Shown in pieces: positions 4,606 through 14,009 of a stretch of DNA of 14,009 nucleotides; position 1 is the stretch's first letter, and each line of letters opens with the position of its first letter. Below the pieces are notes generated by a model. That model saw nothing but the letters and a program-made list of their open reading frames with translations. It had not been told where the DNA came from and searched no databases. The position numbers and the translations under genes are program-made. The stretch is taken from UHGV virus genome UHGV-0193479; one strand, 5' to 3'. Origin of the DNA: a virus.

Positions 4606-7099
4606 TCTGGTCGTTAACCTTGACGTTAACTCGACAAAATTCAACGAGCAGCTCAGCTACGTCAAAAAAGAATTAAAACAGACCGGCAATACGGCAAACG
4701 ATGAAGCGTTACGTATCCAGCAGTCCTTCAGCCGCCAGGAGAACGCCGCGCGTAAGGCCGGTATTTCAGTGGGTCAGTATAACGCAGCGATGCGTATGCT
4801 CCCGGCGCAGTTTACTGACGTGGCCACGCAGCTGGCGGGTGGGCAGAACCCCTGGCTGATTCTGCTTCAGCAGGGCGGTCAGGTTAAGGACTCCTTTGGC
4901 GGGATCATTCCGACATTCCGGGCGTTGCTGGGGACGATTTCCCCGTTGATGGTCGGCATTGGTGCATTGTCCGTTGCAACGGGCGCGTTGTTCTATGCCT
5001 GGTACCAGGGCTCTTCCACTCTGTCTGATTTCAACAAAACGCTGGTACTGTCGGGGAACACAGCCGGACTGACAGCTGACCGCATGCTGGCACTGGCGCG
5101 GAACGGACAGGCAGCGGGGCTAACGTTCAACCAGACCAGTGAAGCCCTGACCGAGCTTATCAATGCAGGTGTGCGTACTGGCTCGCGCTTTGATGAAATG
5201 AGCCAGGCGGTGGCGCGGTTTACTGATGCCTCCGGCGTGCCGGTGGAGAAAGTCGCTGCAGCCTACGGCAAGCTCGCAACTGACCCGACATCGGGCCTGA
5301 TCGCGATGGCCCAGCAGTTCCATAACGTTACCGCAGAACAGATTGCCCATGTGGCGCAGCTGCAGCGTGCCGGTGATGAGGCTGGCGCACTGCAGGCGGC
5401 TAACGAGGCGGCTACAGCCGGATTCAACGATCAGACCAAAGCCATCCGCGACAATATGGGGACGATAGAGTCTTCAGCGGACTCCCTGAAGCGCGCCTTC
5501 AAGTCGATGTGGGATGCAGCCCTCGATATTGGCCGACCTGACACCGCGCAGGAGATGGTGGCAAAAGCCGAAGCCGCGTTCAAAAAAGCTGATGAAATCT
5601 GGAACCTGCGTAAAGGTGACCGATATGTCAATGCTGAGGCTCGCGCCCGATTCTGGAATGACCGCGAAACGGCCAGGCTTGCGCTGGATATGGCGCAGCA
5701 GCAGGCGGGAATTGCCAGGGCGAACGAAGAGAATGCATCGCGCGAAGCGGCTGCGGAATCGGATCGCCAGAAGTATGCTGCGCAGGCACAGGCAAACTAT
5801 GCCAAAACGCAGACGGCACTGGAGAAATACACGGCCAGGCAGAGCGAGCTCAACAAGGCGCTGAAAGAGGGGCGGATCCTCCAGGCTGACTACAACATCA
5901 ACCTGGCTGCCGCGAAAAAAGAGTACGAAGACACCCTTAAAAAGCCGAAGAAGACCCCGGCAATCAGAACCCCCGCAGGTGCCCGTGCCACCGATACGGC
6001 CAGTGCCCAGACGCTGGAGCTACAGACACAGCTGCGCACCCTGCAGGAGCATAAGAGCATCAATGACACCATCAGCCAGCAGCGTCAGGAGCTGTGGCGT
6101 CAGCAGTCCCGCTTTACGGTTCTGGAAGAGGCCGCGAAGACCCGAACGCTTTCTGCTGAGGAAAAATCCCTGCTGGCCAGTAAAAGTGAGGTGCTTTCCC
6201 GTGCGGAGCTGAATGCGAAGCTTGGCGATCAGATAGTGGCGCAGGAGCGGCTTAACCGCCTGCAGGATACGTCCCAAAAATACGTCACGCAGATCGGCGA
6301 GAAAACCCGAGCCCTTGCGGAAAGTGCTGGTATGAGCAGTCGTGCAGCACAACGCCGCAATGAGGAGGCCCAGCTTCTTCAGGGCTGGAAAAATGGTGGC
6401 GGTTCGGAGAACGACGCTGGTTATCAGAATGAGCTGCAGGCGCTGCAGGCGTATTACGCCGAGCAGGATAAGCTGCGGGACGACTGGCAATCCGGGGCCA
6501 AATCCGCATGGGCAGATTATGTTGATTCCGCTTCAGATGCTTATGGCCAGATGAAGTCGGTTGCCACCAGTACGTTTGATGGCATCGGGCAGAATATGGC
6601 AGACATGCTGACACGCGGAAAGGCTGACTGGGCTGACTTTACCCGCTCCACGCTCTCCATGCTGACACAAATTCTGCTGAAGCAGGCAATGACCGGACTG
6701 GTAGATTCAGCCTCCACGGCGCTGGGGTTTGCCAGCGGGGGATTCACCGGTTCGGGTGGGAAATATGAACCCGCAGGTGTCGTTCACCGTGGCGAATTTG
6801 TTTTCACCAAAGAGGCTACCAGTCGGATCGGCGTCGGCAATCTTTACCGGATGATGAAAGGCTATGCCACGGGAGGGTATGTCGGGGGCGGTGGTACAGG
6901 CCCGGCTGCAGCACCTTTCGGTGTCAGTGTATATGCCCCGGTGACGGTCGAGAATGCTTCCGGTAACGCACAGCAGCAAAACGACGGAGACAGGCTGGGT
7001 AAGGCGTATGAGCAGGTGATTAATAAATCTGTCAACGAGGGTATCGCCAGGGCAATCCAGCCCGGTGGGCTTATCTGGAATGCGACCAATCGCAGGTAA
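4583..7099 (+). CDS. H: Tail tape measure protein, lambda gpH-like
   Basis: 838 aa; VGDLVV…AGISVGQYNAAMRMLPAQFTDVATQLAGGQNPWLILLQQGGQVKDSFGG… and C-terminal GGFTGSGGKYEPAGVVHRGEFVFTKEATSRIGVGNLYRMMKGYATGGYVG match lambda H over essentially the full length (lambda H recalled as 853 aa). RBS AGGAGG at 4569..4574. Confidence 0.97.
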   Translation: MAQTAVGDLVVNLDVNSTKFNEQLSYVKKELKQTGNTANDEALRIQQSFSRQENAARKAGISVGQYNAAMRMLPAQFTDVATQLAGGQNPWLILLQQGGQVKDSFGGIIPTFRALLGTISPLMVGIGALSVATGALFYAWYQGSSTLSDFNKTLVLSGNTAGLTADRMLALARNGQAAGLTFNQTSEALTELINAGVRTGSRFDEMSQAVARFTDASGVPVEKVAAAYGKLATDPTSGLIAMAQQFHNVTAEQIAHVAQLQRAGDEAGALQAANEAATAGFNDQTKAIRDNMGTIESSADSLKRAFKSMWDAALDIGRPDTAQEMVAKAEAAFKKADEIWNLRKGDRYVNAEARARFWNDRETARLALDMAQQQAGIARANEENASREAAAESDRQKYAAQAQANYAKTQTALEKYTARQSELNKALKEGRILQADYNINLAAAKKEYEDTLKKPKKTPAIRTPAGARATDTASAQTLELQTQLRTLQEHKSINDTISQQRQELWRQQSRFTVLEEAAKTRTLSAEEKSLLASKSEVLSRAELNAKLGDQIVAQERLNRLQDTSQKYVTQIGEKTRALAESAGMSSRAAQRRNEEAQLLQGWKNGGGSENDAGYQNELQALQAYYAEQDKLRDDWQSGAKSAWADYVDSASDAYGQMKSVATSTFDGIGQNMADMLTRGKADWADFTRSTLSMLTQILLKQAMTGLVDSASTALGFASGGFTGSGGKYEPAGVVHRGEFVFTKEATSRIGVGNLYRMMKGYATGGYVGGGGTGPAAAPFGVSVYAPVTVENASGNAQQQNDGDRLGKAYEQVINKSVNEGIARAIQPGGLIWNATNRR

Positions 7100-7104
7100 C
7101 AGTT

Positions 7105-7452
7105 ATGACGATAGAAACATTCCCCTGGGGCATTAAGGTTTCCAGCCAGCCCACCGAGGGAAGCAAAGACACAGTCAGGAAGGTTCAGTTCGGCGACGGG
7201 TACGCACAGGTGAGCGGCTCCGGCCTGAATGATGAGATTCGTACCTATGAATATTCCTTTTCAGGGGATCCGACTACAGCGAATGAAATTCACGCTTTCC
7301 TTCGGCGGCATAAAGTGAAGTCGTTTATTTTCACTCCGCCTTTCGGCGATACCGCGCTGTGGCGTGTCGAGGCTGACACGCTCAAAAAGGTGGTTAAAAA
7401 CGTAAAAGTGATAACCGTAACCGCAACGTTTGAACAGGCATTTGCACCATGA
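7105..7452 (+). CDS. M: Minor tail protein M, lambda gpM-like
   Basis: 115 aa; …VRKVQFGDGYAQ…GLN…TY…SF…TPP… parallels lambda M (…VRKVRFGDGYSQRAPAGLNANLKTYSV…SFLWTPPYE…). Position directly after H. Confidence 0.92.
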   Translation: MTIETFPWGIKVSSQPTEGSKDTVRKVQFGDGYAQVSGSGLNDEIRTYEYSFSGDPTTANEIHAFLRRHKVKSFIFTPPFGDTALWRVEADTLKKVVKNVKVITVTATFEQAFAP

Positions 7453-8204
7453 GTCTTAATGCTGATTATCAAAAACTCGAGCCGGGCAATGAAGTCCGGC
7501 TTTTTTCTGTCGATGGCACGGCGTTCGGTATGTCAGATGTACTCCGCTTCCACGCACATAACATCGCGCATACCCCGGAAGAGATTGAGGCTGCAGGCGG
7601 GGATGAGAATAAACTTCCAGCGAAGTCCATCTGGTGGCAGGGTGAGGAGTATAAAGCCTGGCCGTGTCAGATTGAGGGGATCGAGGCTTCAACCTCGGGA
7701 AGTAGTGCCCAGCCAAAACTTTCGGTTGCTAACCTCGACAGTTCGATCACCGCGCTTTGCCTGGCTTACGACGATATGCTGCAGGCGAAGGTGACGATAC
7801 ATGACACCCTTGGTAAGTATCTCGATGCGAGAAACTTCACCGGAGGCAATCCGACAGCCGATCCGACCCAGGAGAAGCTGAAGGTTTTCTACATCGATGC
7901 AAAGAGCAGTGAAACCAATGAAGTTGTTGAGTTCACACTATCCAGCCCTATGGATCTGCAGGGGCTGATGATACCTACCCGCCAGCTTCATTCTCTGTGC
8001 ACATGGTGCATCCGGAACAAGTACCGAACCGGCGATGGCTGCGACTATGCCGGTACGCGCTATTTCGACAAAAACAACAACCCGGTAAGCGATCCGTCGC
8101 TGGATGAATGCAACGGCACGCTGACGGCCTGCAAACTCCGATTCGGCGAAGATAACGAACTCTCGTTTGGTGGCTTCCCGGGCACGTCTTTGATCAGGAG
8201 TTGA
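7449..8204 (+). CDS. L: Minor tail protein L, lambda gpL-like (C-terminal Cys cluster consistent with the [4Fe-4S] site)
   Basis: 251 aa; ATGA overlap with M stop. C-terminal cysteines CTWC…DGCDYAG…DECNGTLTACKLRF correspond to the lambda L motif …CTWTYRGDECGY…DKCSKCLSGCKFR (recalled). Confidence 0.93.
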   Translation: MSLNADYQKLEPGNEVRLFSVDGTAFGMSDVLRFHAHNIAHTPEEIEAAGGDENKLPAKSIWWQGEEYKAWPCQIEGIEASTSGSSAQPKLSVANLDSSITALCLAYDDMLQAKVTIHDTLGKYLDARNFTGGNPTADPTQEKLKVFYIDAKSSETNEVVEFTLSSPMDLQGLMIPTRQLHSLCTWCIRNKYRTGDGCDYAGTRYFDKNNNPVSDPSLDECNGTLTACKLRFGEDNELSFGGFPGTSLIRS

Positions 8205-8205
8205 T

Positions 8206-8916
8206 ATGCGTCAGAAAACCATCGATGCGATTATGGCGCATGCTGCAGCTGAATATCCTCATGAGTGTTGCGGCGTGGTGGCGCAGAAAAGCCGCGTTGA
8301 ACGTTATTTCCCGTGCCGGAATCTTGCCGAGGCGCCGGAGGACAATTTTGTCCTTTGCCCCGAAGACTACGCAGCTGCTGAGGACTGGGGAACGGTGATC
8401 GCCATCGTTCACAGTCACCCTGACGCCACAACGCAACCGAGCGAACTGGATAAAGCGCAATGCGACGCAACGCTTTTACCCTGGCATATTGTGAGCTGGC
8501 CGGAGGGGGATTTACGCACCATCCAGCCGCGCGGAGAACTGCCGCTGCTGGAGCGTCCGTTTGTGCTTGGACACTTCGACTGCTGGGGGCTGGTAATGAG
8601 CTATTTTCGGCAAACGCATGGTATCGAACTCCACGATTACCGGGTTGATTATCCCTGGTGGGAAAACGAATATCCGGACAACTTCTATCAGGATTGCTGG
8701 TATGAGTGCGGTTTCCGGGAATTCGACGGGCCACCGAAACCCGGCGATATGGTGATCATGCAGGTCCAGGCTGATAAGTGGAACCACGCGGGAATTCTGC
8801 TGGAGGGAAATATGCTGCTGCACCACCTGTACGGACATCTGAGCCAGCGCGTGCCGTATGGTGGCTACTGGCAGGAAAGGACGATGAAGATCGTCAGATA
8901 TAAAACGCTTCTATAG
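8206..8916 (+). CDS. K: Tail assembly protein K-like; N-terminal JAB/MPN (JAMM) metalloprotease motif plus C-terminal NlpC/P60-type Cys-His peptidase domain
   Basis: 236 aa; JAMM signature E…HSHPDATTQPSELD (E-x(n)-H-x-H-x7-S-x2-D) and downstream DCWGLV…H typical of NlpC/P60. Position between L and I as in lambda. RBS AGGAG at 8197..8201. Confidence 0.93.
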   Translation: MRQKTIDAIMAHAAAEYPHECCGVVAQKSRVERYFPCRNLAEAPEDNFVLCPEDYAAAEDWGTVIAIVHSHPDATTQPSELDKAQCDATLLPWHIVSWPEGDLRTIQPRGELPLLERPFVLGHFDCWGLVMSYFRQTHGIELHDYRVDYPWWENEYPDNFYQDCWYECGFREFDGPPKPGDMVIMQVQADKWNHAGILLEGNMLLHHLYGHLSQRVPYGGYWQERTMKIVRYKTLL

Positions 8917-8937
8917 CCCACTCAGGTGGGTTTTTTT
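8917..8937 (+). terminator. Rho-independent terminator after K
   Basis: Seen in sequence: CCCAC-TCAG-GTGGG followed by TTTTTTT (8931..8937), starting directly after the K stop codon (TAG 8914..8916). Confidence 0.7.
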
Positions 8938-9081
8938 AAACCCCGCATTTCACCGCGCACCGCACGCGCAATTCAAACCAAGAACCTTTCAGGATGCACC
9001 TTGAGGAACCGGCTGGCTGTCGGAGCCTTCTTGGGGCCGTTTTCCTGTGCGACAAGGTTCATCACTAAAAGGTAATCCGAT

Positions 9082-9591
9082 ATGCAATATCCAACCGTAT
9101 CTGTAAACGGCGTATCAGTTCGTGTCGATAACGAAGGACGTTATAATCTTAATGATCTCCACGCCGCAGCGGTGGCTGAAGGCAAAGCCACTGAATCACA
9201 GCGACCAGGTGAGTTTCTCAAAACCAAGCAAGTAAGGCGATTTGTTCAAGCCTTGAGCGATGCGAAGAAAATCGCATCGGTTATGACAATTAAGGGGGGA
9301 CCATTTCAGGGCTCCTGGGGGCTTGAACTTATCGCTATACGCTATGCAGCCTGGCTCAATCCGCTTTTTGAAATCAAAGTCTATGAGACATTTCAAATGC
9401 TAATGCGTCGCGGGTTCGATGCCATGTCTCGCTTGAATAAAATCGACCATGTGATTAACACCGAAACCAAAGCGATCAGCCAGTGCGCCAGCCAGATGGC
9501 CAAGTGGGGTGTTGGTGGCCGCAAGCGGCTTCTACACACAGCACGGGAGCGTGTAGCTGATGAAGTACAGATGTATCTCCCCGGTATTTAA
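9082..9591 (+). CDS. KilA-N domain protein (cargo/moron gene, function unknown)
   Basis: 169 aa. N-terminal region …VSVRVDNEGRYNLNDLHAAA…RPGEFLKTKQVRRFVQAL…GSWGLELIAIRYAAWLNPLFEIKV… fits the KilA-N pattern (I/V-R-x-D-x-x-G-x-x-NLNDLHKA…WL…K). Inserted between K and I, where lambda has no gene. Confidence 0.7.
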   Translation: MQYPTVSVNGVSVRVDNEGRYNLNDLHAAAVAEGKATESQRPGEFLKTKQVRRFVQALSDAKKIASVMTIKGGPFQGSWGLELIAIRYAAWLNPLFEIKVYETFQMLMRRGFDAMSRLNKIDHVINTETKAISQCASQMAKWGVGGRKRLLHTARERVADEVQMYLPGI

Positions 9592-9679
9592 AGGGCGCGT
9601 GAACCAAGATAACATTCGGTTTTGCTACCGCTCGATCCCTGCTACTCTTTTGGCAAAATTGACCAAAGGGGATAGGGAT

Positions 9680-10093
9680 ATGAAAAGAATTTTAGTTTTT
9701 ACCTCCATCTTAATGGTTGCCGGTTGTGCAACTAAGCCGGTGACAAATGAACAAGCACAGGATGTTCCTGCAAAACAGGTTATCAGCAATACACTGCTAG
9801 TAAAAAAAGAAGGGACTGGCAAGGTAATAATCAAACGAGACTCTGGTTTTATGGGCAGCGCCTGCATGACCCGAGTTTATGTTGATGGCAAGGAGGTCGC
9901 AGACTTAGATACAGCTCAAAAGGTAACGGTCTATCCCAAAATTGGAGATCATATCTTTAGCGCTTGGCCCAAAGGTATGTGTGGCGGAGGCATGAGCGAA
10001 CAGTCGGGTAAGGTGACAGATACTGGGGTTTTGATGTTTAGAGTTGGTTACGGAACCAACGGTGATTTTGGTATCTACCCTACAGCATTTTGA
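9680..10093 (+). CDS. Predicted lipoprotein (cargo/moron gene); signal peptide with lipobox VAG|C, Ala at +2
   Basis: 137 aa from ATG 9680: MKRILVFTSILMVAGCATKP… has n-region MKR, hydrophobic h-region and lipobox V-A-G-C. GGGGA RBS-like purine run upstream. The ORF-track start 9560 overlaps the KilA-N gene 3' end in another frame and precedes the signal peptide, so 9680 is preferred. Confidence 0.72.
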   Translation: MKRILVFTSILMVAGCATKPVTNEQAQDVPAKQVISNTLLVKKEGTGKVIIKRDSGFMGSACMTRVYVDGKEVADLDTAQKVTVYPKIGDHIFSAWPKGMCGGGMSEQSGKVTDTGVLMFRVGYGTNGDFGIYPTAF

Positions 10094-10112
10094 ATGCAGC
10101 AATTATATATAA

Positions 10113-10135
10113 CCTCGCTCAGGCGGGGTTTTTTA
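10113..10135 (+). terminator. Rho-independent terminator after lipoprotein gene
   Basis: Seen in sequence: CCTCGC-TCAG-GCGGGG (6-bp stem with one G-U wobble) followed by TTTTTTATT; 20 nt after the lipoprotein stop and 17 nt before the I start. Confidence 0.7.
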
Positions 10136-10151
10136 TTATTAAGAGGTTTAT

Positions 10152-10742
10152 ATGTCTGAAGCAATGACTCGAATTGAGCTCGGCGGCGAACCCGGTAAAA
10201 TATTTGGTAAAACTCATTGGCGACTTATCAGTAAAGTTTCTGAAGCAGGTGTAGCACTCGCAAAAACAATCACCGGGTTTGAAAGTTATATGGTAAACAG
10301 CAAGCGCCGCGGACTAACCTTTGCCATTTTTAAAGGAAAGAAAAACATAGGAGTTGATGACCTAGGTTTTCCGGTAACTGGTGAAGTGGTCAGGATTGTA
10401 CCGGTTATCATCGGAAGCAAAAAGGCTGGTTTACTTCAGACAATATTGGGTGCTGTTATTGTTGCAGTAGGTGCCATTGCTACATTTGGTTTTGCCCAGG
10501 CTTGGGGTGTAAATGTAATGATGGCTGGTGGAGCTATGATGGCGGGTGGCGTCGTCCAGATGTTATCTCCTCAGCCAACCGGATTAGCCAGCAAACAAAG
10601 TGCAGATAACCGTGCATCGTATGCGTTTGGCGGGGTAACCAACACTGCAGCGCAAGGCTACCCAGTGCCTCTGCTTTATGGTAAGCGTCGAATCGGCGGA
10701 GCGATTATTTCTGCCGGAATTTATGTCGAAGATCAACAGTAA
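10152..10742 (+). CDS. I: Tail assembly protein I-like (lambda gpI family)
   Basis: 196 aa; glycine/alanine-rich hydrophobic segment GAVIVAVGAIATFGFAQAWG…MMAGGAMMAGGVVQMLSPQP and C-terminal …PVPLLYGKRRIGG… parallel lambda I (…GAAAIAGSFFTAG…LGGVAQMLAPK…VLPVLYGEMRVGS…). Position between K and J. Clearly more divergent from lambda and more AT-rich than the flanking tail genes. Confidence 0.88.
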   Translation: MSEAMTRIELGGEPGKIFGKTHWRLISKVSEAGVALAKTITGFESYMVNSKRRGLTFAIFKGKKNIGVDDLGFPVTGEVVRIVPVIIGSKKAGLLQTILGAVIVAVGAIATFGFAQAWGVNVMMAGGAMMAGGVVQMLSPQPTGLASKQSADNRASYAFGGVTNTAAQGYPVPLLYGKRRIGGAIISAGIYVEDQQ

Positions 10743-10779
10743 ATTAATTAACTTATTAGCTGATAGGCAGGAGAAAACT

Positions 10780-11097
10780 ATGACTTTAGAAGAGCGCATG
10801 AGCATGCTTGAGGCAACCATCGCGAGCCTGCAGGTGGAGATAGCAGAGCTGCATAACCCGGCAATCGTCAATTCCGCCATTCAGAACGCACTACGGCCAG
10901 GTGGCGCTATTCATTCGACCATCACCGGTAATGGCTGGAGTTTGCGAGTAAAGGAGGGAAAGATTTCGCAGGGTGATGCAGGGGTTTTCGGTGGAACGGT
11001 AACAGCGGCCCAGAATGAGGCCGCTAAAACTCATGAAGAAATATTCAATGAAAAGCTCGATTTAATTATTTCTTTGATGCCACCTCTAAAACTTTAA
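10780..11097 (+). CDS. Hypothetical small protein (105 aa), predicted N-terminal coiled coil; cargo ORF between I and J
   Basis: ATG 10780 preceded by AGGAG (10769..10773). MTLEERMSMLEATIASLQVEIAELH… has heptad-like pattern. No similarity to a lambda protein recognised. The ORF-track start 10678 would overlap the I gene 3' end and is less likely. Confidence 0.5.
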   Translation: MTLEERMSMLEATIASLQVEIAELHNPAIVNSAIQNALRPGGAIHSTITGNGWSLRVKEGKISQGDAGVFGGTVTAAQNEAAKTHEEIFNEKLDLIISLMPPLKL

Positions 11098-11326
11098 GGA
11101 TGCGCGTGAACGCATCAATTGTGTGCGGATCATTACGTGCAGCTGATTCTGGGATTTTTGCTTGCCCTGCCTGATAGTTTTTAGTCAGAGCATCGAGTGC
11201 GCCTGGCCGGGCAATGTCCAGTAATTTCACAATGTCCGATAGAATCAGGCCAGTTGCAATTTCATGCGTAAGCAGCTTTTGTTTAAGCTCTGCCACTTCT
11301 TTTTCCAGTTCTAACATCGAACCCAT
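11066..11326 (-). CDS. Hypothetical small protein (86 aa), predicted N-terminal coiled coil; antisense to the late operon
   Basis: Minus-strand ORF MGSMLELEKEVAELKQKLLTHEIA… with a strong RBS on the minus strand (AAGGAG, 6-nt spacer, ATG at complement of 11324..11326). 3' end overlaps the convergent + ORF by 32 nt. Only convincing minus-strand gene in the window. Confidence 0.55.
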   Translation of the reverse strand: MGSMLELEKEVAELKQKLLTHEIATGLILSDIVKLLDIARPGALDALTKNYQAGQAKIPESAARNDPHTIDAFTRILKVLEVASKK

Positions 11327-11457
11327 TTACTTCTCCTTTTTCCAGAGGTAATCAGCCATTCCACCTGTTATGAGTTCACCAGCGTCCCACCGCTGGCGGG
11401 CTGAATCCACAACATAACCAGGTGTTTAGATTTTTAACATCCTGATATTCAGACAGT

Positions 11458-11480
11458 AGCCACCTTTGGGTGGCTTTTTT
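11458..11480 (+). terminator. Rho-independent terminator immediately upstream of J
   Basis: Seen in sequence: AGCCACC-TTTG-GGTGGCT followed by TTTTTT (7-bp perfect stem); ends 11 nt before the J start codon. Orientation-specific: on the minus strand the A-run precedes the hairpin. Confidence 0.6.
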
Positions 11481-11491
11481 ATGGGCGCAAT

Positions 11492-14009
11492 ATGGCTACA
11501 GATAAAGTGTTAAAAGGCCGCAAGGGCGGCAGCTCAAGTTCCCGAACCCCTACCGAACAGCCTGATGATCTGCAATCTGTAGCGAAGGCAAAAATCCTCG
11601 TTGCGCTTGGGGAAGGGGAGTTTGCTGGACAGCTCACCGGCAAAGATATCTACCTGGACGGAACAGCGCTGGAGAATGCTGACGGCTCCCAAAACTTCAG
11701 CGGGGTAACGTGGGAGTTTCGCGCGGGAACGCAGGCGCAAAAATATATTCAGGGTATTCCCGGTACCGAAAACGAGATCAGCGTAGGAACTGAGGTATCA
11801 AGTGCCACAGCCTGGACGCGCACGTTTACCAATACGCAGCTTTCAGCAGTTCGCCTGCGTCTTAAATGGCCCTCGCTTTTCAAACAGGAAGACGACGGCG
11901 ATCTGGTGGGTTACTCGGTCAATTATGCGATTGACCTGCAGACTGACGGCGGCACATGGCAGACGGTACTCAATACCAGCGTGACCGGCAAAACGACGTC
12001 TGGTTATGAGCGCAGCCACCGTATCGATTTACCGCAGGCTGGCAGCACATGGACAATACGTCTGCGTAAGATTACCTCTGACGCCAACAGCGCGAAGATC
12101 GGCGACACGATGATGCTGCAGAGCTTCACCGAGGTGATTGACGCCAAACTGCGCTACCCGAACACCGCGCTGCTCTACGTCGAATTCGACTCAAGCCAGT
12201 TCAACGGCTCTATTCCTCAAATTTCATGCGAACCGCGCGGCCGCGTTATCCGCGTTCCAGATACCTACGACCCTGAAACCCGCACTTATAGCGGTACATG
12301 GACCGGTGCGTTTAAGTGGGCATGGACGGATAACCCTGCGTGGATTTTTTACGACCTGGTTGTTTCTGACCGGTTCGGCCTTGGGCACCGTTTGACCGCT
12401 GCGAATATTGATAAATGGACGCTTTATCAGGTTGCTCAGTATTGTGATCAGATGGTACCAGACGGCAAAGGGGGCAACGGTACAGAACCACGCTATACCT
12501 GCAACGTGTACATTCAGGACCGGAACGACGCCTACACAGTCCTGCGTGATTTTGCCGCTATCTTCCGTGGCATGACCTACTGGGGCGGGGATCAGATTGT
12601 GGCCCTGGCTGACATGCCGCGCGATGTTGATTACAGCTATACGCGCGCTAACGTTGTTGGCGGTCGCTTCACCTATTCGAGCAGCACCACGAAAAGCCGC
12701 TACACCACAGCGCTGGTTTCATGGTCAGACCCGGGTAACGCTTATGCCGACGCGATGGAGCCGGTATTTGAGCAGGCGCTGGTGGCGCGGTACGGCTTCA
12801 ATCAGCTGGAAATGACAGCCATCGGCTGCACCAGGCAGTCAGAGGCGAACCGAAAGGGGCGCTGGGGTATTCTCACCAATAACAAGGATCGCGTTGTTTC
12901 GTTTGATGTCGGGCTGGACGGAAACATTCCGCAGCCGGGCTACATCATCGCCGTGGCAGACGAGCTGCTTTCCGGAAAGGTTATGGGCGGCCGCATCAGC
13001 GCCGTTAACGGTCGCGTTATCAAACTTGACCGCGTAGCTGATGCAGCACCAGGTGATCGCCTTATTCTCAACCTGCCTTCCGGAGCGTCGCAGAGCAGGA
13101 CCATTCAGGCCGTGAACGGGGAATCAGTCACAGTCACCACGGCATACAGTGAGACGCCACAGGCCGAAGCTGTTTGGGTGGTTGAATCTGACGAGCTTTA
13201 CGCGCAGCAGTATCGTGTTGTCAGCGTTTCCGATAACAATGATGGCACTTTCTCGATTACCGGCGCTTTGCACGATCCGGATAAATATGCGCGTATCGAT
13301 ACCGGTGCCATTATCGACCAGCGGCCAATAAGTGTAATTCCGCCCGGTAATCAGTCCCCGCCAGCTAATATCGCGATCAGTTCGTTTTCTGTCGTTCAGC
13401 AGAATATCAGCGTTGAGACCATGCGCGTCAGCTGGGACCAGGCGAAAAATGCTATCGCGTATGAGGCACAGTGGCGTCGCAATGACGGGAACTGGGTGAA
13501 TGTGCCGCGCAGCTCCACCACGTCATTCGATGTTCCGGGGATTTATGCAGGACGCTACCTGGTTCGCGTGCGTGCCATCAATGCCGCCGAAATTTCATCT
13601 GGGTGGGGCTATTCAGAAGAGAAAACGTTGACGGGTAAAGTGGGAAACCCACCGAAGCCGGTTGGCTTCATCGCTTCTGAAAACGTGGTATTCGGTATCG
13701 AGCTGAACTGGGGATTCCCGGCGAATACCGAAGACACGCTGAAGACGGAAATTCAGTACAGCCTGACCGGTAGCGAAGATGATGCAATGCTGCTGGCCGA
13801 TGTGCCTTATCCGCAGCGCAAATATCAGCAGATGGGTCTTAAGGCAGGGCAGATTTTCTGGTATCGCGCGCAACTGGTCGACAGAACGGGAAACGAGTCC
13901 GGGTATACCGACTGGGTGCGAGGTCAGGCCAGCATCGATGTTTCCGATATCACCGATGTGATCCTGGAGGAGATCAAAGACTCCGCTACGTTTAAAGATC
14001 TGATTGAGA
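11492..14009 (+). CDS. J: Central tail fibre / host specificity protein, lambda gpJ-like (3'-truncated by window edge)
   Basis: Open frame from ATG 11492 to the window end with no stop (checked at start, middle and end), about 839 codons. …VAKAKILVALGEGEFAG…, …LRYPNTALLYVEFDSSQFNG…, …RTYSGTWTGAFKWAWTDNPAWIFYDLV…, …YQVAQYCDQMVPDGKGGNGTEPRYTCNVYIQ… are collinear with lambda J (…CYPNTALVGVQVDSEQFG…, …RQYSGIWDGTFKPAYSNNMAWCLWDML…, …GQYCDQSVPDGFGGTEPRITCNAYL…). Absent from the ORF track only because it has no stop in the window. Confidence 0.95.
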   Translation, partial: MATDKVLKGRKGGSSSSRTPTEQPDDLQSVAKAKILVALGEGEFAGQLTGKDIYLDGTALENADGSQNFSGVTWEFRAGTQAQKYIQGIPGTENEISVGTEVSSATAWTRTFTNTQLSAVRLRLKWPSLFKQEDDGDLVGYSVNYAIDLQTDGGTWQTVLNTSVTGKTTSGYERSHRIDLPQAGSTWTIRLRKITSDANSAKIGDTMMLQSFTEVIDAKLRYPNTALLYVEFDSSQFNGSIPQISCEPRGRVIRVPDTYDPETRTYSGTWTGAFKWAWTDNPAWIFYDLVVSDRFGLGHRLTAANIDKWTLYQVAQYCDQMVPDGKGGNGTEPRYTCNVYIQDRNDAYTVLRDFAAIFRGMTYWGGDQIVALADMPRDVDYSYTRANVVGGRFTYSSSTTKSRYTTALVSWSDPGNAYADAMEPVFEQALVARYGFNQLEMTAIGCTRQSEANRKGRWGILTNNKDRVVSFDVGLDGNIPQPGYIIAVADELLSGKVMGGRISAVNGRVIKLDRVADAAPGDRLILNLPSGASQSRTIQAVNGESVTVTTAYSETPQAEAVWVVESDELYAQQYRVVSVSDNNDGTFSITGALHDPDKYARIDTGAIIDQRPISVIPPGNQSPPANIAISSFSVVQQNISVETMRVSWDQAKNAIAYEAQWRRNDGNWVNVPRSSTTSFDVPGIYAGRYLVRVRAINAAEISSGWGYSEEKTLTGKVGNPPKPVGFIASENVVFGIELNWGFPANTEDTLKTEIQYSLTGSEDDAMLLADVPYPQRKYQQMGLKAGQIFWYRAQLVDRTGNESGYTDWVRGQASIDVSDITDVILEEIKDSATFKDLIE

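Follow-up and report, generated by a model that had tools for sequence, protein, structure and literature searches.

We analysed an AT-rich (adenine- and thymine-rich) block in the tail operon of the UHGV virus genome UHGV-0193479, within a stretch of 14,009 nucleotides (nt) that, taken whole, is called the window here. Genes K and J enclose the block, which belongs to a tail-tip module of HK97/HK022 type in an HK97-like prophage. Our findings support a model, to which we give a probability of about 85%, where the block is the sum of two independent moron slots flanking gene I and of the intrinsically low-GC (guanine plus cytosine), fast-diverging N-terminal three quarters of I itself. Morons are defined as obvious additions relative to related phages, with a GC content unlike that of their neighbours and with their own promoter and terminator (PMC3594210). 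The model is carried by composition, gene identities, breakpoints, the independent assortment of the two cargos, a family-wide pattern, hairpins and covariation in a leader. An earlier note, made from the sequence alone, had proposed that the entire K-J interval, I plus cargo, was acquired as one unit from a lower-GC relative; comparison with related sequences leads us to reject this.

Composition of the Block

The block, which the earlier note had delimited by eye at 9080-11330, is confirmed as real, significant and compositionally foreign. GC is 0.465 over these positions against 0.547 in the rest of the window, and 0.470 over the interval from the K stop codon to the J start codon (8917-11491) against 0.549 in the remaining sequence. 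The sliding profile forms an unbroken trough from ~8850 to ~11650 that bottoms out at 0.41 (positions 10051-10350), against 0.51-0.62 in the backbone; the 2251-base-pair (bp) segment of lowest GC in the whole sequence begins at 9265, and outside the block every segment of this length has a GC of at least 0.527. Optimal segmentation with two breakpoints returned 9040-11515 (9051-11500 on a coarser grid), placing the limits drawn by eye within about 50-180 bp of the computed ones.

Neither chance nor gene content, acting through amino-acid composition, is a credible source of the dip. Backbone genes do vary too (GC of M, 0.506; U, 0.504), yet the log-likelihood gain of the segmentation (29.1) was reached by none of 300 shuffles of 100-bp blocks (maximum 14.0), and the shift is concentrated in third codon positions, whose GC (GC3) is 0.37-0.49 in the block against 0.51-0.65 in the backbone. 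Synonymous codon usage also separates the pooled block genes from the pooled backbone genes (chi-square p = 1e-36). It deviates in all five block genes, most strongly in the lipoprotein gene and I (chi-square per degree of freedom ~3.3, against 0.9-2.1 in backbone genes), and the GC3 of I is the lowest in the window. The two slots have GC values of 0.473 (K-I) and 0.466 (I-J), a deviating composition of the kind that the moron definition names. A second, smaller dip (0.467) occurs at 151-450; it sets in just 5' of the major capsid gene E (262-1287) and covers the first part of that gene.

Independent Assortment of the Two Cargos

Relatives were gathered by a genome scan with the I protein, which returned 59 loci (given below, where needed, as L followed by three digits); 49 with matches to L, K, I and J form the family set. 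In the window, the K-I slot (8917-10151, 1235 bp) holds a gene for a KilA-N domain protein and a lipoprotein gene, and the I-J slot (10743-11457) holds the convergent pair orf105/orf86, with 749 bp from the I stop codon to the J start codon. These identities uphold those of the earlier note for KilA-N (PF04383), I (phrog_32) and the minus-strand open reading frame (ORF) at 11066-11326.

An Escherichia coli locus (L001) has the same complete architecture, 100% identical in the block except over 10350-10600 (50-82%). Two others from E. coli (L002, L003) are 93-100% identical to the window up to 8891 and 99-100% identical from ~10600 to 13200, a stretch that takes in 140 bp at the 3' end of I, both orf105 and orf86, and the 5' part of J; over 8891-10600 their sequence is unrelated or 50-80% identical, with a gene of the YebO family and another I allele. 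A locus from Pseudocitrobacter faecalis (L011) is 99-100% identical over 9000-10600 (KilA-N, the lipoprotein and the 5' three quarters of I) and 78-90% identical over 10600-10757; positions 10758-11458 are absent, and its I stop codon directly adjoins the backbone hairpin and J, the I-J slot being empty. In L030, with K 96% and J 99% identical to the window, YebO occupies the K-I slot and the I-J slot is empty. All four combinations of the two cargos are found, then, on near-identical backbones. The joints fall at ~8890-8928, ~10350, ~10600 and 10757/11459; alignments to L002, L004, L005 and L012 stop at 8888-8891, and the last ~25 nt of K differ between cargo types.

A single event that brought in everything between K and J (cargo, I and cargo) from a lower-GC relative, with joints only at ~8940 and ~11330-11490, would account for the uniformly low GC of every gene in the interval (0.44-0.49) and for the identical complete architecture in E. 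coli L001, and the outer joints that it predicts are real, located here at ~8890-8928 and 11459. It conflicts, however, with relatives whose K and J are 93-100% identical and which show every cargo combination (L011, L002/L003, L030), with the internal breakpoints at ~10350, ~10600 and 10757, with the nesting of KilA-N beside an older, resident lipoprotein gene, and with the HK97-type 3' end of I (98-100%). No lower-GC donor was found among the 59 loci: the lowest-GC backbones (L023, J 0.48; L027, J 0.51) carry only distant I and lipoprotein homologues, no backbone of 46-47% GC has this block, and the closest relatives of the lipoprotein and I are in hosts of 52-57% GC. We consider a single event very improbable. 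What survives of the proposed joint movement is a tendency of the K-I cargo to bring the N-terminal part of I along with it; exchange of the I-J cargo takes place apart from this.

Between the window and L001, short divergent patches (70-92%) also lie at 6800-7100, 8100-8400 and 13200-14009 within otherwise 100% identical sequence, which indicates fine-scale, gene-conversion-like exchange in the 3' end of H, at the L/K junction and in mid-J.

Gene I and the Family-Wide Pattern

Gene I (10152-10742) belongs to the gpI family by its match to phrog_32 (E = 3e-68) and its position between K and J. Over its full length the protein matches PDB 25vf_9 (E = 2e-55), the HK97-type homologues being PDB 25vf and 9l9p, and its C-terminal region matches lambda gpI (8iyk_I, E = 4e-12; lambda gpI structures PDB 8iyk and 9e7m). 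Unlike lambda gpI, it shares only 27.6% identity with that protein and scores 13.6 bits against Pfam Lambda_tail_I (PF06805), below the cut-off of 23.8. That I is the most divergent from lambda among the tail proteins, as had been claimed, is nominally true, but the margin is trivial. At the amino-acid (aa) level, E is 89% identical to its lambda counterpart and FI to H are 44-67% identical, but the figure drops to 37% in M, 33% in both L and J, and 32% in K; genes E-H are lambda-type (44-89% aa) and the entire M-J set is HK97-type. We therefore set lambda aside as a comparator, which is uninformative since all M-J genes belong to another type. Against HK97-type relatives the outlier status of I does hold: DNA searches place L, K and J at 90-95% nt identity to the HK97/HK022/mEp235 group, against 66-76% for I.

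A larger mosaic joint lies upstream, at ~7100-7450 (M and the M/L boundary), where lambda-type E-H give way to HK97-type tip genes. DNA homology to HK022, mEp235 and L011 begins at 7423-7435, just 5' of the L start codon, and to HK97 later, at ~7723.

Judged by its sequence, I of the window is a chimera, whose 5' part is of L011 type and whose 3' end is of HK97/HK022 type (98-100%). The two parts behave differently throughout the family. Mean pairwise distance is 0.38 for residues 1-150 of I and 0.13 for residues 151-196, against 0.23 for K and 0.19 for J. Over all loci the Mantel correlation is 0.95 between K and J and 0.91-0.92 between the last 46 residues of I and either of them, against 0.67-0.69 for the first 150 residues; in the 41 closest loci the latter drops to 0.34-0.40, against 0.77 for K-J. 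Divergence in the N-terminal 150 residues is, in sum, roughly double that of K and J, and their congruence with these two genes is lower. These per-gene distance comparisons support a history of I that differs from that of K and J, as had been predicted.

Composition follows a similarly wide pattern. The GC of I lies below that of both K and J in 46 of the 49 loci (medians 0.496 against 0.557 and 0.553; Wilcoxon p = 1e-9), and its identity to the window is below that of both in 44. The K-I slot is filled in 43/49 loci (median 533 bp) and the I-J slot in 18/49, each with a GC of 0.41, and their occupancies are independent (Fisher p = 1, 49 loci). AT-rich slots and a lower GC of I are thus properties of the whole family, in hosts of 50-57% GC, and therefore neither date nor unify an acquisition. 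That I is low in GC and highly divergent is a long-standing, family-wide property of its N-terminal part and no sign of a recent joint import.

This pattern invites an explanation in which AT-richness is kept by selection or mutation bias on accessory, weakly constrained sequence and does not reflect recent foreign origin. Possible causes are targeting by the xenogeneic silencer H-NS, low or lysogen-specific expression and relaxed codon selection; for I, the low GC of the N-terminal part would result from weak constraint and not from import. In its favour, both slots have ~41% GC whatever gene is inside, over 49 loci and many genera; I lies below K and J in GC almost throughout; median GC3 is 0.43 in the N-terminal part of I against 0.52 in the C-terminal part; and, despite a wide distribution, no amelioration is seen. 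In the solved tail-tip chains of 9e7m, lambda gpI is represented by a C-terminal piece only, which fits a stronger constraint on that part and a weaker one on the N-terminal part. On the other hand, near-identical prophages change abruptly from 100% to 50-80% identity with one another, and this requires recombination. We hold the selection account unlikely, though well short of negligible; it is a complement to the mosaic explanation, not a substitute.

Two loci of the survey carry enterobacterial-type I and J (83-92% aa) in unexpected assignments, Deinococcus petrolearius (L063, a 617-bp contig) and Limoniibacter endophyticus (L013, a 52-kb contig); these assemblies are likely contaminated.

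Table 1. Features of the K-J Region in the Window, with Selected Counterparts in Other Loci
Feature	Positions	Strand	GC (GC3)	Description
K	8206-8916	+	0.551 (0.629)	JAB/MPN and NlpC/P60 domains (PF14464, PF00877); phrog_30; backbone, proposed left recombination anchor
GC-rich hairpin and T-run	8915-8939 (hairpin 8915-8932)	+		Terminator-like; overlaps K stop codon; left end of KilA-N cassette
KilA-N leader	8940-9081	+		Conserved ~150 nt; ~71% nt match to UPF_BP1 from 8928; fold z-score -2.3
KilA-N domain protein (169 aa)	9082-9591	+	0.490 (0.476)	PF04383, residues 9-109, 56.6 bits (gathering cut-off 23.8); phrog_129
Lipoprotein (137 aa)	9680-10093	+	0.442 (0.406)	Lipobox LMVAG-C; phrog_890 ("lipoprotein")
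Intrinsic-terminator-like hairpin	10111-10136 (hairpin 10111-10130, then T-run)	+		Closes K-I cargo, just 5' of the ribosome-binding site of I
I, whole gene	10152-10742	+	0.467 (0.365)	
I, variable N-terminal 150 codons	10152-10601	+	(0.35)	100% identical to L011; 10350-10600 differs from L001
I, conserved C-terminal 46 codons	10602-10742	+		HK97/HK022 type, 98-100% nt; behaves as backbone; proposed anchor common to both slots
orf105, forward small ORF	10780-11097	+	0.480 (0.486) for frame 10771-11097	phrog_22477, E = 3e-75; ATG at 10780, not 10771
orf86, reverse small ORF ("reverse moron")	11066-11326	-	0.448 (0.402)	phrog_23209, E = 6e-59; converges on orf105, 32-nt overlap
Non-coding element 5' of orf86	11327-11457	-		TAnnnT, CCTGATATT box, structured ~80-nt leader
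Backbone hairpin and T-run	11458-11481 (hairpin 11458-11475)	+		Just 5' of J; right boundary of I-J insertion site
J (partial, 839 aa)	11492-14009	+	0.548 (0.614)	Host-specificity protein; PF24801, PF13550; phrog_31, phrog_2589; backbone, proposed right anchor
Element copies elsewhere	L006 4169-4318; L007 4269-4424; L070 1343-1495; L071 1297-1450; L072 1487-1642			
Lipobox proteins in K-I slots	L004 3005-3400; L005 2950-3465; L012; L013; L033; L034; L056			

The K-I Slot

Extra DNA between genes that are adjacent in relatives, the first mark of a moron, is found in both slots: empty K-I sites measure 4-43 bp (L026, L039, L050, L057, L058, L065) against 1235 bp in the window, and the I-J interval is 54-116 bp in 31 of the 49 loci, including L011 with its 99% identical I, against 749 bp here. 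The K-I cargo also has a terminator of its own, the hairpin at 10111-10130 with its T-run. A hairpin precedes I in six of the seven filled K-I slots inspected and in neither of two empty slots of ~15 bp (L026, L039). In Morganella morganii L050 (4458-4500), the 43-bp K-I slot holds a terminator-like hairpin and no gene, and is either a remnant of lost cargo or an empty landing pad.

The lipoprotein starts with the signal peptide MKRILVFTSILMVAG followed by the lipobox cysteine (C16), which is invariant in 35 homologues; Pfam LPAM_1 gives a sub-threshold score (15.2 against 20 bits). The family has no Pfam domain and is widespread in Enterobacterales. Its homologues (29-74% aa) lie directly 5' of I, with no KilA-N gene, in about 19 of the loci compared, and unrelated lipobox proteins occupy the same place in others, L004 and L005 among them. 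Most filled K-I slots, indeed, hold one or two lipobox proteins directly 5' of I, drawn from several mutually unrelated families; HK022-type slots have a YebO-like membrane protein in place of the lipoprotein.

The KilA-N gene is far rarer, being present, among the loci compared, only in the window, L001, L011, a Buttiauxella locus (L036), where it lies 5' of another lipoprotein family, and a P22-like phage locus (L009, UPF_BP1). A hairpin equivalent to that at 8915-8939 precedes the KilA-N leader in both L036 and UPF_BP1. As lipoprotein homologues occur without KilA-N, and the KilA-N cassette occurs in other contexts, the sequences point to a separate cassette, whose insertion would be the second one, nested beside an older, resident lipoprotein gene. 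The KilA-N leader folds somewhat better than its shuffles (table 1). We also observed that hairpin with T-run, leader of ~150 nt and KilA-N gene travel together in three contexts (window 8915-9081; L009 3980-4160; L036 2810-2975).

By position beside the host-specificity genes, and by the recurrence of unrelated lipoproteins in the slot, the lipoprotein resembles known exclusion lipoproteins; by this analogy it is a candidate envelope or superinfection-exclusion factor, acting for instance by receptor masking. Its predicted structure is a lipid-anchored beta-sandwich (pLDDT 89.6) with generic structural neighbours. Searches gave no similarity to solved chains at E <= 1 and no PADLOC match for the lipoprotein, a weak KilA-N match (E 0.0023) as the sole PADLOC result for the block proteins, and no NCBIfam match for any of the five.

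The I-J Slot and the Element 5' of orf86

The 318-bp ORF of orf105 is also called by RefSeq in L002. For orf86, weak homologues are found in HK633_067 (30%, 1e-7) and mEp213_072 (28%, 3e-6), and gp23 of HK97, in the same slot, is annotated as a "reverse moron product". The layout of orf105 and orf86 matches that of HK97 gp22/gp23 and HK022 gp22/srb, though no significant similarity to these proteins was found. Of the empty I-J sites inspected, nearly all keep the hairpin at 11458, the exceptions being L040 and L050 from Morganella; lambda has a comparable hairpin.

Between orf86 and this hairpin lies a conserved non-coding element, present in 21 full-length copies among the loci examined. In an alignment of 17 sequences, a -10-like TAnnnT motif (TATGTT at 11416 to 11411, minus strand) is invariant (17/17), as is the CCTGATATT box. 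On the minus strand the motif stands ~85 nt 5' of the orf86 start codon, and no clear -35 could be made out for it. RNAalifold computes a consensus fold of -29.4 kcal/mol for the minus strand, lower than the -18.7 obtained for the plus strand; the former consists of an invariant UCAGCC/GGCUGA stem around an 8-bp stem with compensatory and U-G changes. Overall, pairing holds in 94.5% of cells; the covariation score of 0.165 was reached by none of 500 shuffles (0.109) and fell to 0.079 or less when the stem partners were slid. We read the element, on this sequence evidence, as a probable promoter-like sequence with a structured 5' leader of the reverse gene. Independently transcribed genes antisense to lytic genes are reported to be typical of prophage accessory loci (PMC7067206).

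A plus-strand small RNA ending at the 11458 hairpin was considered and rejected: the minus-strand fold is better, and the U-G wobbles pair on that strand only. No Rfam family reached its gathering score at 11327-11481, where the sole match was rseX-like, on the plus strand (29 bits against 50, E = 0.77); over 8700-11700, at E <= 1, there were two sub-threshold matches, rseX-like and Trp-leader-like.

With a length of ~130-150 nt and 75-80% nt conservation, the element stands 5' of small reverse ORFs at three late-operon sites: in the I-J slot (HK97, HK022 and L004), after Rz (HK633, mEp213) and between M and L (Salmonella phage Oslo). The ORFs behind its copies are weakly related or without detectable relation. 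It is possible, if tentatively so, that the ~130-nt element is an undescribed portable expression module for "reverse morons" in lambdoid/ES18-like late operons, reused before unrelated small ORFs at at least three sites and serving as a homology anchor for cargo swaps; in parallel, the near-universal, unrelated lipoproteins before I may form a tail-tip-linked class for exclusion or receptor masking, with the N-terminal part of I hitchhiking.

A Model of Exchange and Expression

Crossover points recur in conserved stretches of the breakpoint map, from which we infer that cargo is swapped by homologous recombination between conserved anchors. Three anchors are proposed: K up to ~8890; some 140 bp at the 3' end of I; and the stretch from ~11335 through the reverse-gene leader and hairpin into the 5' end of J. 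The K-I slot would have held a resident-type lipoprotein gene, closed by a terminator before I, into which the KilA-N cassette (hairpin, 150-nt leader and gene) was later inserted on the 5' side. The orf105/orf86 pair would have entered between the I stop codon and the backbone hairpin before J, with orf86 driven from the conserved promoter-like element and its structured leader. Because the variable 5' part of I lies with the K-I cargo between the first two anchors, it would often be swapped together with that cargo, as between the window and L002, and would be decoupled from K and J; the I-J cargo would be exchanged separately, between the 3' end of I and the J-proximal anchor.

Lambdoid late operons under Q-type antitermination read through terminators. 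In the present operon, late transcription would likewise pass the three hairpins to reach I and J, and the same hairpins would insulate the cassettes, which would be transcribed in the lysogen. The lipoprotein might have its site of action in the envelope, where it could, for instance, mask a receptor.

Several points weigh against parts of this model. A scan for sigma-70 consensus promoters found none 5' of the KilA-N or lipoprotein gene and one site, inside I, and in relatives with the lipoprotein alone its gene starts ~40 nt after the K stop codon; because of these two facts, the K-I cargo may be co-transcribed with the late operon and not be a self-contained, prophage-expressed unit. A minus-strand terminator 3' of orf86 was looked for and not found. 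The functions of all four cargo proteins are putative, the PADLOC match of KilA-N being weak and the predicted fold of the lipoprotein generic. The loci were chosen by similarity to the I protein of the window and form a biased sample, a bias that opposes finding I the more divergent gene. Finally, foreign origin and selection may each be a cause of AT-richness, and both stay candidates. On the promoters, -35/-10 boxes picked by eye 5' of the KilA-N and lipoprotein genes were unconvincing and were dropped.

Overall, the region is a well-resolved case of shuffling in a lambdoid tail operon, with two fixed slots, anchors, a nested insertion and breakpoints placed within tens of bases. It illustrates how a uniform compositional island can comprise pieces of different history, and that GC alone is no proof of a single acquisition. 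Two candidates are flagged, namely a widespread family of lipoproteins encoded beside the genes for host specificity and a promoter/leader element that is conserved before antisense accessory genes. Current understanding is not overturned; the reverse-gene leader and the pattern of K-I lipoproteins are the only parts that may merit follow-up.

Comparison with Known Systems

The KilA-N genes of P22-like Salmonella phages (UPF_BP1, ST104, SE1) and of ST64B are 68-71% identical in nt over the gene, and in UPF_BP1 the match to the cassette of the window extends over the 5' hairpin and the ~150-nt leader. Whereas the cassette here occupies a tail slot, in UPF_BP1 (one phage locus examined) it has the lysis genes on one side and the small terminase gene on the other.

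Superinfection-exclusion lipoproteins encoded beside siphophage receptor-binding genes include Llp of T5 and Cor of phi80, N15 and HK022, which act on FhuA, and Rtp45, which acts on LptD (PMC9586334; PMC12685063; PMC3594210). Like these, the protein of the K-I slot is a lipoprotein of small size that has a signal peptide and a lipobox and whose gene lies in or beside a tail-tip/host-specificity cluster; it showed no homology to a characterised member, however, in searches of solved chains (E <= 1) and PADLOC models, the likeness being one of position and protein class. It is also larger than Rtp45 (~6 kDa, PMC12685063; structure 9RPS), with 137 aa and a predicted beta-sandwich.

The closest parallel is with HK97 and HK022 themselves, whose GenBank records annotate genes in the K-I and I-J positions as "moron product" or "reverse moron product". 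A literature search returned no paper on the term "reverse moron" and none relevant for srb of HK022. The morons of these phages occupy the same two insertion sites, HK022 gp20 that between K and I, and HK97 gp22/gp23 and HK022 gp22/gp23 ("srb") that between I and J. Moron mosaicism in HK97 and HK022 is reportedly the subject of a description by Juhala et al. in 2000 (J Mol Biol 299:27). Common to all are a homologous L-K-I-J module, cargo richer in AT than the genes around it, a terminator hairpin before I, an I-J slot with a convergent pair of forward and reverse ORFs, and the ~150-nt element 5' of the reverse gene. In contrast, the K-I slot of the window is doubly occupied, by nested insertion, with KilA-N and the 137-aa lipoprotein instead of a 74-aa YebO-like protein, and the N-terminal part of I is another allele, with ~55% aa identity. 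The block is thus ordinary moron mosaicism as in HK97 and HK022, with new cargo (KilA-N and lipoprotein; orf105/orf86) and an apparently chimeric I.

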